NCBI GenBank assembly: GCA_024234165.1
Contig: JACKOP010000001.1
Location: 533,707 to 597,706, forward strand
DNA length: 64,000 nt
Direction of reading: 5' to 3'
DNA from: Pseudomonadales bacterium
GTDB taxonomy: Bacteria; Pseudomonadota; Gammaproteobacteria; Pseudomonadales; UBA5518
Shown piece after piece: positions 12,058-23,339 of this stretch (the stretch's first letter is position 1; each line of letters begins with the position of its first letter). A model generated the notes under the pieces. The model did no database searches. It was not told the DNA's origin and was given only the letters and a program-made list of their open reading frames with translations. Both the position numbers and the translations under genes were made by a program.

Positions 12058-12145
12058 GTAACCGTCCAAACCACGCCGTTCTGTTATCCCGTCTGAACCT
12101 TCGCGATGCTCTGTTTCAACGAAGTGGTGTTGGAGGAGTATCGCC

Positions 12146-12489
12146 ATGGGTTCGGCATCGACGGGTTCAGGTTCTGTGCGCAAGTATGCACGCCACAGCG
12201 CGGCACAGTGGCGCGCGCTGATAAGCGAGTTCGAGGCGAGCGGTGTTTCGCAGCAGGCGTTCTGCACCCGCCACGGCACGGCGAAGAGCACCTTCGAGCT
12301 GTGGCGGCGCAAGCTGCGCGGAGCCCGGAACACCGATGTGGCGGGCGTTCGGCCCGAGGCGCTGTTTGTCGAGCTGACCGCGCCAGTGGTCGACAAGACC
12401 GAGGTGCTACCGACCACACCTGCATGGGAGGTAGAGCTCGACCGGGTGCGGGTGTGGTGCTGCGGCTGCGCCGGGGCGCCCCATGCTGA
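12146..12489 (+). pseudogene. IS66 tnpA (orf1), 1-nt deletion
   Basis: Copy 2 reads gagctcgacctgggtgc and copy 1 reads gagctcgaccgggtgc (T lost at about 12443). The expected C-terminus GAGVVLRLRRGAPC with an ATGCTGA overlap to tnpB lies in another frame. Confidence 0.8.
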
Positions 12490-12842
12490 GCATCAGCAGT
12501 GCATCGCGCATCTGGCTGTGCCTGGAGCCCACCGATATGCGCTGCTCGTTCGATGGGCTGTCGGCACGGGTGAGGCAACACCTGGGCGAAGACCCGCTGG
12601 GCAGCAGCAGCCAATGGTTTGCGTTTATCAACCGCCGCGCCACGCAGATCAAGGTGCTCGGCTTCGAGACGGGCGGTTACTGGATCTGGTCGAAGCGACT
12701 CGAGCGCGGACACTTTGCCCGCCTGATGACACGCGATGGACGCGTGAAACGCGCACTGTGCGCCACCGAGTTTCTGGCGCTGCTCGAAGGCGTCGACGTC
12801 GAGATAAAAAGGCAGCGAAAACGCTACCGAACAACGGCATGA
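12483..12842 (+). CDS. IS66 tnpB (orf2) accessory protein
   Basis: 119 aa. IWLCLEPTDMRCSFDGLSARV is the hallmark N-terminus of IS66 Orf2. Confidence 0.9.
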   Translation: MLSISSASRIWLCLEPTDMRCSFDGLSARVRQHLGEDPLGSSSQWFAFINRRATQIKVLGFETGGYWIWSKRLERGHFARLMTRDGRVKRALCATEFLALLEGVDVEIKRQRKRYRTTA

Positions 12843-12896
12843 GCAGGGGCATTCCGGTACAATAACAGCACGGTTTTCCTGCAGTATCTTCCGCCC

Positions 12897-13887
12897 TTGA
12901 ACGCCGCTTCGCGCATCGTCGAACTCGAACAAACTAATGCGCAACTCACGGTGCAGATGGCCGCGATGACGCAGCAGTTTGGCGCCGAGATCGCCGCGCT
13001 GAAGCAGCAGCTCGACTGGTTCAAGCGCCAGCTCTTCGGGCAGAAGAGCGAGAAGCAGCTGAGCATCGATCCTGCCGTGCAGGGCAACCTGCTCGATGCA
13101 CTCGGTGTGCTTGAACCGCCGCAGAAGTCCCCACCGCCTCCCGAGCAGTCGATCACCTACACGCGCCGGGGCAAGGTGCGCGATGCGGCGGTGAACGACT
13201 CAGGATTGCGCTTTGGCCCCGATGTCACCCGCGACGTGATCACCATCGTCGATCCGGCGATTGCCGCCGTACCCGAGGAGCGACGCAAGCTGGTCTCTGA
13301 GCGCGTCAGCTACCGCCTGGCGCAGCGCCCGGGCAGCTACGGGATCATCGAGTACCACTACCAGACCTGGAAGCTGGTCGACGAGCAGCGCATCGTCAGC
13401 ACCCCGGCACCGGCCAGCGTACTCGAGCGCTGTGTGGCCGATGTGAGCCTGCTGGCCGGAATGCTCGTCGACAAGTTCTGCTACCACCTGCCGCTGTATC
13501 GCCAGCACCAGCGGATCGCCCAGTGTGGCATCCAGCTGAGCCGCACCAGCCTCGGCAACTGGAGCGGACGGGCCATCGATCTGCTGCGTCCCATCGCAGC
13601 CGCCCAGCACGCCCACATCCTCAGCGGATCGGTGGTAGCGATAGACGAGACCCCGATCAAGGCGGGACGCGAGAAGCAGGGCAAGATGCGCCAGGCCTAC
13701 CTCTGGCCGATCTACGGCGAGGACGACGAGATCGTCTTCCACTACGCGCCGACCCGGGCGCACCACCATGTCGAGAAGATCCTGGGGCCGGACTTCCGGG
13801 GAACGCTGCTCTCGGACGGCTACGCCGCCTACAGCGCCTATGCGGCACGCAAGGGTGGTATCACCCACGCGGGTTGTTGGGCGCATT
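12897..13887 (+). pseudogene. IS66 tnpC (DDE transposase), segment 1 of 3
   Basis: N-terminal coiled coil, LPLYRQ and DETP motifs. Ends at HAGCWAH, where the RIT element begins. Confidence 0.85.
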
Positions 13888-13909
13888 ATCCCGAGTCTGC
13901 AGTTATCCG
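13880..13909 (+). repeat. RIT left inverted repeat
   Basis: ggcgcattatcccgagtctgcagttatccg is the exact reverse complement of 22034-22063. Confidence 0.9.
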
Positions 13910-14028
13910 GAGTAGATGCATCAAGCAGCGGCTTCGTGTCACAAAGTAAGCGTTTTTTGTCCGGATAATGCGGCGGCGTCATCCGCATCGACCAGCCAGC
14001 GTTGTATTGACTGACGACCACGCGTTTC

Positions 14029-14388
14029 GTGGAGTGCGGGAGATGCCCGATGCGGCGACCCGTCGGTGTTCCGTATCGATTGACCGATGTCAAACACGTT
14101 TGGCGTCGTAATCACGGGCTGGGACGTCAGTCGCTCGCCGTCTACGAGTATTGGCTGTATCGCTTTGCTCGCTACTGCGAGCGGTACTCACTGGATCAGC
14201 GCACCGAGCTGACACAGTGCGGTGCCGAGCGCTTCGCGCGCTGGTGGCAATTGCACGGCAGTTGTCGTCACGGCCGGATCGAGGTTGCGACCGCCGCATC
14301 ACACGGACCGTTGCGCGCATGGGCGTTTGCCCTCTCGATGTTAGGCGAGCCAATGCCGCCGTGGAGCCCCCCCACAGGCTGCGCCACC
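14029..14388 (+). pseudogene. RIT recombinase A (ritA-like), N-terminal part, cut by IS3-Y
   Basis: N-terminal SAM-like integrase region. Continues at 19078 after IS3-Y. The two parts are out of frame by 1 nt unless the C7 run at 14367-14373 is C6. Confidence 0.65.
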
Positions 14389-22000: not shown

Positions 22001-22033
22001 GCCGAGCGTGACGCGCGCTCTGCAGCGTAACTA

Positions 22034-22063
22034 CGGATAACTGCAGACTCGGGATAATGCGCC
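22034..22063 (-). repeat. RIT right inverted repeat
   Basis: cggataactgcagactcgggataatgcgcc is the exact reverse complement of 13880-13909. Confidence 0.9.
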
Positions 22064-22091
22064 TTATCCAGAGATCTGGATAAGGCGCATT
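22056..22091. repeat. Perfect 17+2+17 palindrome spanning the RIT right junction
   Basis: aatgcgccttatccaga ga tctggataaggcgcatt. The outer 8 nt of the right arm are the tnpC target sequence. Confidence 0.9.
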
Positions 22092-22446
22092 GCCGCCGAG
22101 GCTTCGAGCAGGCCCGAGATGCCGAACCGCAGGCGGCGGCCGAGGCGCTGGCGATGATTGCCGCGCTGTACCGGCACGAGCAGATCATCCGGGAACAGAA
22201 CCTGGACCGGGAACACAAGCTCGCTTACCGAACACAGCACAGCGAGCCGATCGTCAACCGCTTCTGGCACTGGTGTGACGACCAGTGCCACCGCATGGAT
22301 CTGTTGCCGAGTAACCCGCTTGCCAAGGCGATCCAGTACGCGAAGGCACGGGTGGCGAGTCTGCGGGTGTTCTTGTCGGATCCGGATGTGCCGATCGACA
22401 CCAACCACCTGGAGCGCAGCCTGCGGGCGGTTCCAATGGGACGGCG
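22084..22446 (+). pseudogene. IS66 tnpC, segment 2 of 3
   Basis: Continues AHCRRGFEQA...IAALYRHEQIIREQNL...DTNHLERSLRAVPMGR in frame with segment 1. Confidence 0.85.
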
Positions 22447-23056
22447 TTATGCACGGTTCACTGTTATGGAAGGTTGCGACGGCTGACGTCGGCAAAGGTG
22501 CACGACTGCGGACGGTAATAGCCAGTGCCGGAGCCGCTTCAGCCTCGTCACCTGCCATAGGTCATTCAATCGAACCTTACATAACTACAAGGCCTGCAGA
22601 GCCGCAGGATGTGATCTGTCGGCCGGTAACCGATCGACCCGGTGCCGGGTGGACTCAATGCCATCAATGCGCTCTCCTTCATCGCGAGGTCTGCCCCCGA
22701 GATAGTGAGGCGCGGTTGTCGTGCCCGAACCGGAGCGCAACGACGGTGATGTTGACGCCGGCCTGGAGCATATGCATGGCAGTCGAGTGCCGGTTGATGT
22801 GCGGAGAAACGTGCTGGGTCGCCAACTCGGAATGCTTGCGAGCAACACTTCGAATTGCTTACGGGGCGGCATGAGTACTCTCCCGTGACGATCGTGAGAT
22901 CGCCACGAAAGCAGTCCGGATTATGAAAGGTAACTCAACATAGACGGCGTGCTGCGAGTCGCGAAATACCAAGCGAAATCAAGCAGCGTCCCGGAAACCT
23001 TCCATAACAGTGAACCGTGCATAATTTCTGTTATGGAAAGCTTTCCATAACAGAAA
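22447..23056 (-). mobile_element. RIT-derived miniature element (about 0.61 kb, non-autonomous)
   Basis: 29-bp perfect inverted repeats (22447-22475 and 22996-23024) plus a 32-bp perfect palindrome (23025-23056). Inside, on the minus strand, is a decayed tyrosine-recombinase C-terminus (HINRHSTAMHMLQAGVNITVVALRFGH..ADLAMKE). Boundaries are good to about 3 bp. Confidence 0.7.
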
Positions 23057-23288
23057 AAACTGGCTCTTCTGTTGGACCGAGGTCGGTGCCGAGCGGGTGG
23101 CGGTTATCCAGAGCCTGCTGGTGAGCTGCCGCCTACAGAGCGTGGACCCATACACCTATCTGGTCGATGTGCTACAGCGCTTCAGCGTGCATCCGGCGAG
23201 TCGGGCAGTCGAGCTCACGCCGCGCGAGTGGAAGGCACGCTTCGCTCACGATCCCATGAAATCCATACCCCCCAAGTTCCGCAGCTAG
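23052..23288 (+). pseudogene. IS66 tnpC, segment 3 of 3
   Basis: RKNWLFCWTEVGAERVAVIQSLLVSCRLQSVDPYTYLVDVLQR... is the canonical TnpC C-terminus. Confidence 0.85.
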
Positions 23289-23339
23289 AGACGCAAGTGA
23301 TTGATTTATTTGATTCCAACATGGCGTTTGTGGCACAAC

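Follow-up and report, generated by a model that had tools for sequence, protein, structure and literature searches.

The window analysed here is a stretch of 64,000 nucleotides of a Pseudomonadales bacterium (GenBank assembly GCA_024234165.1, contig JACKOP010000001.1), in which mobile elements lie one inside the other. Did these elements pile up at one place by chance, or did some of them choose their targets? An earlier note on this DNA had described five nested elements (IS-X < IS110 < IS3-Y < RIT < IS66) and had called the locus a strong IS sink. We confirmed the elements and their order, and we put at about 85% the probability that positions 12058-23268 hold a real chromosomal nest of five levels with two layers, IS110 and RIT, showing target preference. 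A RIT element encoding three tyrosine recombinases interrupts tnpC of an IS66-family element. Its ritA is interrupted by an IS3-family element (duplicating CCACC), the -1 frameshift heptamer of this IS3 (A_AAA_AAG) by an IS110-family element, and the IS110 transposase gene by an IS5/IS1182-like element (duplicating AGCA). The same IS66 also received a mini element of 610 bp that derives from a recombinase element, and an IS1634-family element cut off its right tip. The features are listed in Table 1.

Table 1. Features of the nested locus and its flanks (window positions).
Feature	Position	Strand	Remarks
IS1634-terminus-like fragment, 32 bp	12026..12057	+	29/32 match; abuts IS66 left end
IS66-family element (tnpA, tnpB, tnpC)	12058..23268	+	outermost; interrupted three times; ~45 bp of right tip missing
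tnpB (IS66)	12483-12842		NF033819 match
RIT element (ritA-ritB-ritC) with nested load	13880..22083 (equally 13888-22091)	+	within tnpC codons C-W-A-H / C-R-R
RIT inverted repeats	13880-13913 and 22030-22063		34 nt, 97%
Left core copy GGCGCATT	13880..13887	+	doubles as tip of RIT left inverted repeat
ritA	14029..19971	+	split by IS3-Y into 14029-14388 and 19083-19971
IS3-Y (IS3 family)	14389..19077	-	1626 bp without load; inverted repeats TGTCTTGCC..; CCACC flanks
IS3-Y orfA and orfB	orfA start 19017; orfB end 14669	-	
IS110-family element	15674..18736	-	1581 bp without IS-X; in IS3-Y frameshift heptamer; right end GTTTCTTAGGAA
IS110 transposase	18514-17755 and 16272-15677	-	NF033542 234 bits, one stretch
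IS-X copy 1	16273..17750	-	DUF772 and DDE_Tnp_1 (IS5/IS1182-like); 4-bp duplication AGCA
IS110 left-end non-coding region, 222 nt	18515..18736	-	putative bridge/seeker RNA
RNA loop strands	UAAGCCUUU 18656-18648; UCAAAAAACC 18630-18621; GUUUAGGAAG 18569-18560	-	
ritB	19968-20936		ATGA overlaps
ritC	20933-22000		ATGA overlaps
36-bp perfect palindrome, RIT right junction	22056..22091	.	AATGCGCC, TTATCCAGAG / ATCTGGATAA, GGCGCATT
610-bp non-autonomous mini element	22447..23056	.	tyrosine-recombinase-derived; in tnpC G-R-R/N-W
IS1634-family element	23269..25146 (transposase 23341-24984)	-	NF033559 360 bits, residues 26-541; cuts off IS66
Second IS66 copy	25147..25535	-	first 389 bp only, inverted, 94% identical

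The region is dense in repeats, and two genes are damaged in the window while being intact in other assemblies: IS-X copy 1 has five indels (374-aa transposase elsewhere), and the IS66 tnpA (from 12146) has a 1-nt frameshift (114-aa gene elsewhere). These differences hint at local assembly or polishing problems and could suggest an assembly chimera produced by repeat-induced mis-joins. We regard such a chimera as highly improbable. All 13 junctions were covered by contigs of 5 to 15 independent samples of an uncultured Pseudomonadales bacterium, obtained with different assemblers (a junction was counted as spanned when a contig covered ±40 bp at ≥97% identity). The duplication or core to be expected is present at all of them. 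Furthermore, each peeled-off gene aligned end-to-end with intact homologues, a comparison that the earlier note had named as its refutation test. Since the identical structure was found in every assembly recovered, the nest looks fixed in this Pseudomonadales lineage.

The left terminus of the outermost element, GTAACCGTCC.., is also present in two other copies or fragments. An intact IS66 relative with 95% DNA identity (L214-216) matches the window in three colinear blocks (12805-13898, 22084-22446, and 23058-23268). The reconstructed TnpC has 525 aa, matches NF033517 in a single stretch (365.9 bits), is 96% identical to an intact homologue (P0130), and is covered along its full length by P0130-P0134. 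The right end had been placed at 23329, which is wrong: homology to intact relatives stops at 23268, the true right tip is absent, and an IS1634-family element begins there. The window's tnpC diverges from intact homologues after ..DPMKSI, exactly at the start of the 14-mer CCCCAAGTTCCGCA, which recurs as the other terminus of the IS1634-family element (25130-25143). The IS66 right end and the flanks show additional rearrangement, and the 32-bp fragment at the left end could mean that IS66 itself landed in an IS1634-family element. More broadly, the first 36 kb of the window are densely filled by IS copies and fragments: IS5-like (3 copies), IS-X (3 and fragments), IS66 (2 and a fragment), an IS1634-like element, and another DDE element.

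The mini element is a further insertion in tnpC that the earlier note had overlooked. Its inverted repeats are perfect over 29 bp, a palindrome of 32 bp (TTTCTGTTATGGAAAGCTTTCCATAACAGAAA) is terminal, and a minus-strand remnant (..HVSPHINRHSTAMHMLQAGVNITVVALRFGH..) matches PF00589 with 30.7 bits, above the gathering score. Its empty site, GGACGGCGCAATTGG, is present in the 95%-identical intact IS66, and the TnpC profile scored higher with the GRRNW version (365.9 bits) than with the GRRKNW version (361.0).

The same intact IS66 bears out the insertion of RIT in tnpC. Its empty site reads ..TGCTGGGCGCATTGTCGCCGAGG.., with a single copy of GGCGCATT, and removal of RIT restores CWAH-CRRGFEQA in frame, as in intact homologues. 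The trio of the Marinobacter plasmid pMAQU02 shares 51-62% identity with RitA, RitB, and RitC. The reconstructed RitA matched an intact RitA in a single tblastn alignment covering residues 13-415 (51% identity), and ritA is colinear with its relatives across the IS3-Y junction. The insert extends 28 bp past the right inverted repeat, with AATGCGCC and a 20-bp palindrome (TTATCCAGAGATCTGGATAA). The larger palindrome at this junction starts with the inverted core AATGCGCC, continues with the middle part, and ends with GGCGCATT, the target copy (22084-22091). Over 20 positions, the tip of the RIT repeat agrees with the intact target at 17. The earlier note had rightly seen GGCGCATT on both sides of RIT, but its nature was misread: we infer that it is more probably the core of a tyrosine-recombinase crossover than a duplication made by a transposase.

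Is this insertion point peculiar to the window? TnpC fragments, i.e., interrupted IS66 tnpC genes, flanked 38 of the 52 assessable metagenome relatives of RIT. The breakpoint was at TnpC residues 329-331, in the codons G-C-(W/M/L)-A-H, in 26 of these 38. The TnpC of the IS66 hosts are only 26-57% identical to that of the window, and 21 of the relatives were co-directional with tnpC, 15 opposite to it. The junction layout of the window was repeated in 12 others, with the palindrome always on the tnpC 3' side (13/13). Marinobacter pMAQU02 and Cupriavidus pMTS1 also carry RIT at matching tnpC codons with a matching layout. TnpC was not found in the flanks of 14 of the 52 relatives, which may correspond to divergent IS66 elements, short flanks, or other targets.

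These junctions suggest how the element might move. A RIT circle would carry a long palindromic joint composed of the right repeat, the inverted core, the 20-bp palindrome, the core, and the left repeat. This joint would hold two inverted recombination sites, each consisting of a 6-7-bp overlap (GGCGCA) between arms of ~10 bp (TTATCCNGAG). Recombination with a matching GGCGCA(T) in tnpC would produce the apparent 8-bp "duplication". This would permit both orientations of the rit genes, and the palindrome would end up every time on the 3' side of tnpC. The mini element lacks core homology at its left junction, so a rule of overlap homology is not absolute.

IS3-Y splits ritA, and its boundaries, its TGTCTTGCC inverted repeats, and its CCACC repeats, which are exact on both sides, were correctly described before. 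Excision of IS3-Y with one CCACC leaves ritA 1 nt out of frame; a C7 run (beginning at 14367) adjoins the break.

The boundaries of the IS110 layer had to be corrected. The true element is 71 bp longer at the left end and 3 bp longer at the right end than the interval 15677-18665 given before. It is inserted exactly in the IS3 frameshift heptamer, and its excision restores A_AAA_AAG with the junction ..VLKK/ALGPITLSAEV... The "AAAAAAC slippery site" proposed earlier is a junction artefact. The fused frame derived from it (..RRRLEALGP..) reads through the IS110 left end and scored lower with NF033516 (195.0 bits) than the orfAB fusion across the restored heptamer (205.2 bits, one stretch). Removal of IS-X with 4 bp does rejoin the IS110 transposase in frame, as had been claimed, giving a protein of 451 aa with thousands of intact homologues of 449-451 aa.

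We followed the ends and the target of this IS110 in its relatives, including 80 genome loci; a recognisable junction was available for 69 related loci. In these 69 loci the common sequence begins directly after an A5-7 run and ends with ..TTAGGAA. The run precedes relatives 51-86% identical to the window's element almost always, mostly as the "ILKK" frameshift site of IS3 elements; 34 of the 69 loci fit the strict form of the IS3 motif, [DE][ILV]LK/K. Sometimes the target is an IS630-type FKK site. In one set of loci, each element lay between orfA and orfB of an IS3. Plasmids of Aeromonas, Pseudomonas, Moellerella, and Citrobacter were also covered, as was E. coli. From sequence comparison, the IS110 of the window is a member of a widespread clade that targets A5-7 runs, most often the IS3 frameshift heptamer.

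The association is so regular that the IS110-like gene and its upstream region could be taken for the third, integral module of a particular IS3 subfamily, and RIT similarly for a module of a particular IS66 subfamily. We regard this idea as highly improbable. The same IS110 is found behind two different, unrelated IS3 sequences (L042 and L043), and also at IS630-type and other sites. Its excision restores the canonical heptamer and the orfA/orfB overlap, and one locus (L088) has the IS110 right end abutted to the left end. As for RIT, an intact IS66 relative lacks it, and it occurs in both orientations in the distant IS66 hosts described above.

For IS110, the preference might be encoded in RNA. 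The left end would encode a conserved, structured RNA, with the left (A6-C-N) and right (UUAGGAA-N) junctions recurring in its loop strands, and this RNA would guide the DEDD recombinase to its target like the bridge/seeker RNAs of IS621 and ISEc21. The consensus structure has 25 pairs, with 97.8% of the cells paired (31-49% when partners were slid) and 106 double-change cells (27.7 in shuffles). The guide-like segments covary with the junctions, with 51/52 and 41/52 matches, the latter against 18.9 expected and a value reached by 0 of 20000 shuffles; the putative guide assignment, which accounts for part of the four guide segments, draws on matching and covariation in sequences that are related and not independent. 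The window RNA alone folded no better than shuffles (z = +0.85), and the Rfam scan of this RNA matched no family.

The innermost element, IS-X copy 1, was correctly delimited with its AGCA flanks. It has GAGTTTCTTGCAAAAC inverted repeats, and the two further copies in the window (30898-32363 and 33336-34802) have the same ends, each with its own 4-bp duplication. In assembly L001 the nested IS-X is 100% identical to copy 2 of the window.

The relative chronology IS66 -> RIT -> IS3-Y -> IS110 -> IS-X, also given by the earlier note, stands assuming that each insertion happened in place. It would be shortened or reordered if at least one layer arrived in a ready-made composite, such as RIT::IS3-Y or IS3-Y::IS110 (alone or carrying IS-X), that was moved as a unit by enzymes supplied in trans. 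The members of the IS110 clade for P0001, P0007, and P0063 are all inside IS3, the same IS3::IS110 occurs on several contigs, and a second IS3-Y-like fragment, a 103-bp copy of the terminus at 3727-3829, implies that trans supply was once possible. Still, we find a composite unlikely. With its frameshift site interrupted, an IS3 is unable to produce OrfAB on its own. Exact-protein look-ups of the IS3-Y orfA and of RitB all returned the same nested locus, as did nearly all those of the IS66 tnpB (leaving out L024, a short contig with different neighbours), and no composite was seen elsewhere among these loci. The 100% identity of the nested IS-X to another copy in L001 fits its being the latest event.

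A passive IS sink, in which five unrelated events within the boundaries stated earlier accumulated by chance or tolerance, would fit the crowding of the first 36 kb by IS copies and fragments. It would also fit IS3-Y and IS-X, whose duplications are ordinary and at sites without evident specificity; these layers look like ordinary DDE transposition into mobile DNA that was already dead. However, the IS110 and RIT layers are found at the same sequence in many unrelated hosts, and the limits given earlier for IS110, the slippery site, and the right end of IS66 are wrong. Comparative data strongly suggest that both insertions need specific target sequences. A sink is not the best explanation for these two layers, and as an account of the whole locus we judge it improbable. 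Two of the four nesting events are site-specific, homing on conserved sequences of other mobile elements, and for this reason the locus is more than a sink for random insertions.

The outer and middle layers resemble known families. The window's IS66 shares the three-gene layout, the GTAA.. terminus, and the NF033517 and NF033819 matches of its family, with intact relatives having TnpC 84-96% identical to its own. Unlike functional IS66 it is dead, with tnpC interrupted twice and truncated and the right inverted repeat missing. IS3-Y shares with IS3 elements using -1 frameshifting (IS911/IS150-type) the overlap of orfA (helix-turn-helix) and orfB (rve), the A_AAA_AAG heptamer on excision, and the TG..CA ends. 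Yet, it is long for the family (1626 bp), with ~280 bp after orfB. Its 5-bp flanking repeat is at the upper end of the IS3-family range.

The IS110 layer is close to the RNA-guided DEDD recombinases ISEc21 and IS621 in having PF01548 and PF02371, a long non-coding region upstream of the gene, a very short core at both junctions, no terminal inverted repeats, and a strict target choice. ISEc21 targets conserved IS3 DDE codons (bioRxiv 10.1101/2024.04.26.591405), around the second D, whereas the element of the window targets the A-run of the orfA/orfB -1 heptamer. Its transposase is a long one, with 451 aa compared to 358 aa in ISEc21 and 315-330 aa in the IS621 branch. In loop 1 the strand matches seem to run in the opposite order to those of IS621, the strand complementary to the top strand apparently coming first.

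The closest known relatives of the RIT are ritA1B1C1 of Cupriavidus metallidurans CH34, which inactivates an IS66 tnpA (PMC2864759), and Tn6049::RIT of Acidithiobacillus ferrooxidans. Known RIT elements, as here, have three adjacent overlapping tyrosine-recombinase genes (ritA-ritB-ritC) with ATGA overlaps and imperfect inverted repeats. RIT insertions in IS66-family or other transposase genes have been published as single cases in the accounts consulted, and their mobility mechanism was called unknown there. In the present data, a single insertion point in IS66 tnpC, a core of 6-8 bp, and a constant arrangement of the junctions (core, repeat ... repeat, inverted core, palindrome, core) are common to a whole clade; parts of this may already be published. 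The predicted site, with two inverted ~10-bp arms around a 6-7-bp overlap identical in element and target, would resemble the core sites loxP, FRT, and dif. It would differ from them in having two sites back to back in a palindromic joint and three encoded recombinases. The non-matching junction hexamers of the mini element resemble the coupling sequences of Tn916-type elements. Finally, as in the nested IS clusters known as IS graveyards, dead elements gather insertions and the layers are ordered by who interrupts whom, but in this nest at least two layers owe their position to target specificity and not to tolerance alone.

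The first 36 kb of the window are crowded with insertion sequences, and within the nest the genes of five mobile elements are split and interleaved as nesting demands (open reading frames, repeat finding and self-BLAST). Exact-protein look-ups with RitB, IS3 OrfA and IS66 TnpB found the same nest in JGI metagenomes, in three NCBI MAGs and in assemblies of ENA and Logan; the exception was a short TnpB contig (L024) with different neighbouring genes. For each of the 13 junctions, 5 to 15 different samples gave contigs that read across it with at least 97% identity, including 40 bp to the left and to the right. 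Hence, the nest is not a chimera peculiar to the window, and the five levels and their order, as reported in the earlier note, are real. That observation was mostly accurate, and its interpretation is partly supported by our results.

If each event happened in place, IS66 received RIT, followed by IS3-Y, IS110 and IS-X in that order. One layer or another may instead have arrived as part of a ready-made composite. The nested IS-X of a 654-kb JGI contig (L001) is 100% identical to another copy in that contig, which fits with its insertion being the latest event. The window and this contig are 99.89% identical across 21 kb. They differ by 7 mismatches and 9 gaps, including five indels in the nested IS-X (+3, +2, -1, +2 and +6 nt). 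The IS66 tnpA of the window has a 1-nt frameshift (12440-12450, compared with L001); this gene and the nested IS-X transposase gene are intact in the other assemblies. The differences in these two genes could result from strain-level decay or from assembly or polishing errors in repeats. Nested insertion sequences are commonplace, and the nest itself is ordinary; its value is in what the single layers show. What is new are two target-specific clades and a model of the RIT junction, all built on known kinds of elements.

Features of the nest and its surroundings (window positions)
Feature	Position	Length	Description
IS5-like element, first copy	1-1020		three copies of a 1.25-kb element, 98.8-99.4% identical, one of them cut by the window edge
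IS5-like element, second copy	7100-8350	1.25 kb
IS5-like element, third copy	10652-11900	1.25 kb
Patchwork	3367-3931
IS-X-like right end	3367-3460		82% identity; start of patchwork
IS3-Y-like piece	3727-3829	103 bp	first 103 bp of element, 92%
IS66 piece	3830-3931	102 bp	first 102 bp of IS66, 97%, opposite sense
IS-X left-terminus fragment	11972-12025	54 bp	89% identity
IS1634-type terminus	12026-12057	32 bp	abuts IS66 left end
Nest	12058-23268
RIT with nested load	13880-22083
RIT right junction			right inverted repeat, AATGCGCC (inverted core), TTATCCAGAGATCTGGATAA (palindrome), target GGCGCATT
IS110	18736 to 15674, minus strand	3063 bp with IS-X, 1581 bp without
IS-X, nested copy	16273-17750
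Mini element	22447-23056	610 bp	29-bp perfect inverted repeats, terminal 32-bp palindrome
IS1634-family element	roughly 23269-25146		ends inferred from 14-nt repeat CCCCAAGTTCCGCA
DDE_Tnp_1_4-type transposase gene	26783-28144		outside nest; splits a short-chain dehydrogenase gene
266-bp repeat	28114-28379	266 bp	also in patchwork
Diverged IS5-like gene	34895-35887		outside nest; 66% DNA identity to the element at 10652-11900

The innermost layer is as first described: removal of the nested IS-X with one AGCA leaves a single 451-codon frame of the IS110 transposase. The three IS-X copies of the window share the termini GAGTTTCTTGCAAAAC...GTTTTGCAAGAGGCTC and have each their own 4-bp duplication (AGCA, TTAA or ATTA). 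IS-X matches PF01609 (DDE_Tnp_1, 47 bits) and PF05598 (DUF772, 39 bits) and is below the cut-offs of the NCBIfam IS5 and IS1182 models; the label IS5/IS1182-like is provisional. A fragment of an IS-X-like left terminus lies directly left of the IS1634-type terminus, and is a further truncated end bordering the nest. One IS5-like copy ends around 160 bp left of the nest.

IS3-Y splits ritA, with ends TGTCTTGCC..GGCAAGACA (TG..CA type) and CCACC on both flanks, in agreement with the initial description. Another copy of its terminus in the window (103 bp) starts at the same base. The patchwork in the left part of the window consists of an IS-X-like right end, a 266-bp repeat, and IS3-Y-like and IS66 pieces that are directly fused; the latter two are terminal, of near-equal length and joined at internal points. 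After precise excision of IS3-Y, the frame of ritA is off by one nucleotide, with the break at most 25 nt from the junction, beside a C7 run common to all eight assemblies; C6 in its place would open a 421-codon frame. Because this stretch is a linker that varies among RitA relatives, the homologues do not settle the original sequence. Apart from this, RitA aligns colinearly with intact homologues (one tblastn piece, residues 13-415). We considered a 3-bp duplication (ACC), since removing 3 nt restores the ritA frame, and rejected it because the flanks allow only a CCACC or a CC repeat. The homology results for RitA used this 3-nt-removal reconstruction; they stand, as the affected stretch is the variable linker.

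The IS66 host element encodes tnpA (114 aa where called in other assemblies), tnpB and tnpC (DDE_Tnp_IS66), all in one direction. TnpB matches NF033819 with 87 bits and the reconstructed TnpC matches NF033517 with 365.9 bits. The left repeat is present and the right one (..GCGTCGTTTGACCGCTTAC in an intact relative) is absent; the window copy does not carry the pair of terminal inverted repeats with an 8-bp duplication. It is therefore truncated, which bears on its integrity and not on its family. The missing right tip is nowhere in the window. The right end had been placed at 23329, but 23268 is the last position with homology to the intact relative; in place of the final six tnpC codons and the right repeat stands the terminus of an IS1634-family element. 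The positions 23337-23360 had been considered for the right inverted repeat, and the surroundings of 23309 for an 8-bp duplication; the real right end of the intact relative ruled out both. A megablast search of plasmids with the reconstructed IS66 gave only short, weak matches, and no close relative among them.

The transposase of the IS1634-family element matches NF033559 with 360 bits (cut-off 100, residues 26-541). A search for other copies that would define its ends returned only this locus. Beyond it, 389 bp of a second IS66 follow in inverted orientation, and a copy of the IS1634-type terminus abuts the left end of the nested IS66. The flanks of IS66 thus imply additional rearrangement. 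The first description had missed a further insertion in tnpC, a mini element that lies at G-R-R|N-W without duplication. Part of a tyrosine-recombinase gene is left in it (30.7 bits on PF00589), and its palindrome is built like the RIT junction. The alternative reading of tnpC as ..GRRKNW.. was discarded, since intact homologues and the profile score favour ..GRRNW.., which sets the length of the mini element at 610 bp.

RIT elements are defined in the literature by three adjacent tyrosine-recombinase genes, in the order ritA, ritB and ritC, with short overlaps. In the window, the three products match tyrosine-recombinase models, the genes overlap by ATGA at 19968 and 20933, and RitA, RitB and RitC are respectively 51%, 50% and 62% identical to a trio from Marinobacter. 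The inverted repeats have 34 nt with 97% identity (12-87 nt in relatives; 47-51 bp in published elements). The intact IS66 relative (95% DNA identity) is colinear with the window in three blocks and has an empty RIT site with a single GGCGCATT, and uninterrupted TnpC homologues read ..H-A-(G/S)-C-W-A-H-C-R-R-G-F... The insertion of RIT in tnpC is thus confirmed, with two amendments: the insert exceeds the stretch from repeat to repeat, and the 8-bp flanking repeat is better regarded as a core.

The target site in tnpC is ..TGCTGGGCGCATTGYCGCCGAGG.., and the right junction forms a perfect 36-bp palindrome. The closest plasmid relatives (Marinobacter pMAQU02 and Cupriavidus pMTS1) are inserted at the same IS66 tnpC codons with the same layout. 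A scan of metagenomes with RitB provided 80 loci, of which 52 had enough flank to be assessed. IS66 TnpC fragments, only 26-57% identical to the TnpC of the window, flank 38 of these 52 relatives, and the breakpoint is at TnpC residues 329-331 in 26 of the 38. RIT and tnpC are co-directional in 21 cases and opposite in 15. Irrespective of the direction of the rit genes, the palindrome is on the 3' side of tnpC (13/13 junctions). Most relatives lacking a TnpC match are in contigs that end at the element, and thus say nothing on a palindrome at non-IS66 sites. The empty site, the two orientations and the many IS66 hosts are comparative signs that RIT may move as a unit. At 17 of 20 positions, the outermost 20 nt of RIT's inverted repeat (GGCGCATTATCCCGAGTCTG, 13880-13899) agree with the intact tnpC target (GGCGCATTGTCGCCGAGGCT, 1076-1095 in L214, the intact relative), i.e., the target looks like a half-site of RIT's own end. 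Further along tnpC, positions 23100-23115 hold GGTTATCCAGAGCC (A-V-I-Q-S-L), with a 10-nt match to the palindrome arm TTATCCAGAG that may be due to chance or mark a second pseudo-site.

These junctions suggest a model in which the joint of a circular RIT would be palindromic (right repeat, inverted core, palindrome, core, left repeat). It would hold two inverted recombination sites, with arms TTATCCNGAG around a GGCGCA overlap, and either of them could recombine with the same overlap in tnpC. Such a crossover would account for the apparent 8-bp duplication, the two orientations and the fixed side of the palindrome. The mechanism of RIT movement is described as undetermined in the literature consulted. 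RITs have been reported in other transposase genes as well, and our literature searches for a systematic link between RIT and IS66 yielded a single remark on a RIT inside an IS66-family transposase gene, in C. metallidurans CH34 (PMC2864759). RIT elements are common, and more than 12 independent RIT::IS66 junctions, together with the empty site and both orientations, make the crossover model testable. If true, the conserved junction would provide the first concrete model of RIT integration.

The reconstructed IS110 transposase matches NF033542 in one stretch (234.4 bits, cut-off 140, residues 21-410). Its intact homologues number in the thousands, with lengths of 449-451 aa and 79-86% identity, and carry PF01548 and PF02371 (DEDD, RuvC-like). 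In the DNA around three close homologues, the IS110 gene lies between same-strand IS3 orfA and orfB in every locus. Flank alignment shows that the sequence common to the copies begins right after ..(C/T)TAAAAAA and finishes at ..GTTTCTTAGGAA. The left boundary is fixed by two loci (L042 and L043) where the same IS110 is preceded by different IS3 sequences. The element lacks terminal inverted repeats and a transposase-type duplication; its ends are CC.. and ..TTAGGAA, AA being the overlap with the target A-run. IS110 is thus nested in IS3-Y as proposed, with its boundaries moved to 15674-18736. The sequence AAAAAAC, previously taken for the slippery site, is the target A-run joined to the first C of IS110, and 25 extra residues assigned to OrfAB are the translated left end of IS110. 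Excision of IS110 restores GTG TTA AAA AAG CTC TCG GGC CCA TCA CTT TGA, i.e., a canonical A_AAA_AAG heptamer with the orfA stop 21 nt past it, and orfB can then be read in the -1 frame (..VLKKALGPITLSAEVRV..). On NF033516 (cut-off 160), this OrfAB, with its rve catalytic domain, obtains 205.2 bits over residues 10-378, whereas the previous version scored 195.0.

The clade is found in Pseudomonadales, E. coli, Alphaproteobacteria and other phyla. Sites between IS3 orfA and orfB are also occupied on plasmids of Aeromonas, Pseudomonas, Moellerella and Citrobacter, and on an E. coli chromosome the RefSeq annotation has IS3 pseudogene fragments on both sides of an IS110 relative. We assembled 80 loci from a scan of one genome per species and added the loci fetched earlier; 69 loci had a recognisable junction, placed after an A5-7 run. 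The strict IS3 pattern [DE][ILV]LK|K was present at 34 of the 69, and the remainder include IS630-type ..FKK sites or the IS3 "ENDFLEGA" stretch on its reverse strand. The IS630-type sites (..SFKK/TFKK) are those of L061, L072-L074, L078 and L079, other A- or T-run sites in insertion sequences are those of L063, L077, L080-L083 and L085, and, on its reverse strand, the orfA stretch encoding ..ENDFLEGA.. is used; sub-clades of the group sit at all of these. In one locus (L088, around 2240-2290) the right end of an IS110 relative abuts its own left end (..TTAGGAA|CCGTCGCGGAAC..), a sign of either a tandem copy or a circle-type joint that was caught in the genome. Among 5426 complete E. coli genomes, 546 match the IS110 relative, 74 of them with at least 80% query coverage. 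In E. coli KFu019 (L217, chromosome 582469-587648) it splits an IS3 remnant that adjoins a tyrosine-recombinase pseudogene and a group II intron, forming another stack of mobile elements.

The 222-nt left end of IS110 may encode a structured RNA that guides the recombinase to its A-run target. Aligned, 61 distinct left ends yield a consensus structure with 25 pairs; its six helices enclose two large internal loops. Standard pairs occupy 97.8% of the cells (31-49% with partners slid) and changes on both sides occur in 106 cells (27.7 in shuffles). Support for the structure comes only from the alignment: the RNA of the window folded by itself has an uninformative z = +0.85 relative to shuffles. 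Rfam, scanned with 11500-26000 under a permissive threshold, gave nothing relevant and no family for the left end. The 3' strand of loop 1 (N-A6-C-N) is identical to the left junction, i.e., the target A-run and the first bases of the element, and its 5' strand (GC[C/U]UUUU) complements the A-run together with the first bases right of it. The segment U[U/C]AGGAA-N of loop 2 is identical to the right end plus the first right-flank base. The RNA agrees with the right end for the T/C variant in 51 of 52 loci, and its next base agrees with the first flank base in 41 of 52 (18.9 expected, 0/20000 shuffles as high). The base preceding the A-run agrees with the RNA in 34 of 58 loci (24.6 expected, 1/20000). 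As the sequences are related to each other, these counts are supportive and not exact. A search by eye for the four guides of bridge RNAs gave convincing segments for A6-C-N, UUAGGAA-N and the target-complementary GC(C/U)UUUU, and did not find the right-donor guide. Several 7-A targets (e.g., L059, L061 and L072) are accompanied by a seven-A run in the RNA loop and by two altered bases after UUAGGAA that fit the new right flank, as if the RNA had been naturally re-programmed.

The locus had been regarded as a strong sink for insertion sequences. Tolerance of insertions into dead elements does contribute, given the IS-rich neighbourhood and the presence of IS3-Y and IS-X, which have no evident specificity. 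But for the layers of RIT and IS110, and probably for the mini element, target specificity is the better explanation. We give roughly even odds (about 0.5) to the nest being a chain of hyperparasitism, where the RIT and IS110 clades are dedicated parasites of other insertion sequences. Each parasite would recognise the DNA of the least changeable feature of its host element: RIT would read the C-W-A-H/R-R motif of IS66 TnpC, and IS110 the heptamer at which ribosomes shift frame in IS3 and IS630 elements. The parasite would gain a safe and widespread landing site, and silence the host element. Such insertions inactivate their hosts, and mobile elements may thus restrain each other. Annotation pipelines that label these loci "transposase fragments" overlook this structure.

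The IS110 clade would offer natural guide/target pairs to studies of bridge recombinases. The logic of its loops and junctions is like that of the IS621 bridge RNA and the ISEc21 seeker RNA and suggests the same mechanism, with putative guides that are here partly assigned, from sequence. Our literature searches found no IS110 element targeting the IS3 frameshift site and only the case of ISEc21, an IS110-family element that inserts in IS3 where the residues around the second D of DDE are encoded (bioRxiv 10.1101/2024.04.26.591405). In contrast to ISEc21, the clade described here appears to take the IS3 frameshift heptamer as its RNA-specified target, which would make it a second, different target in IS3.
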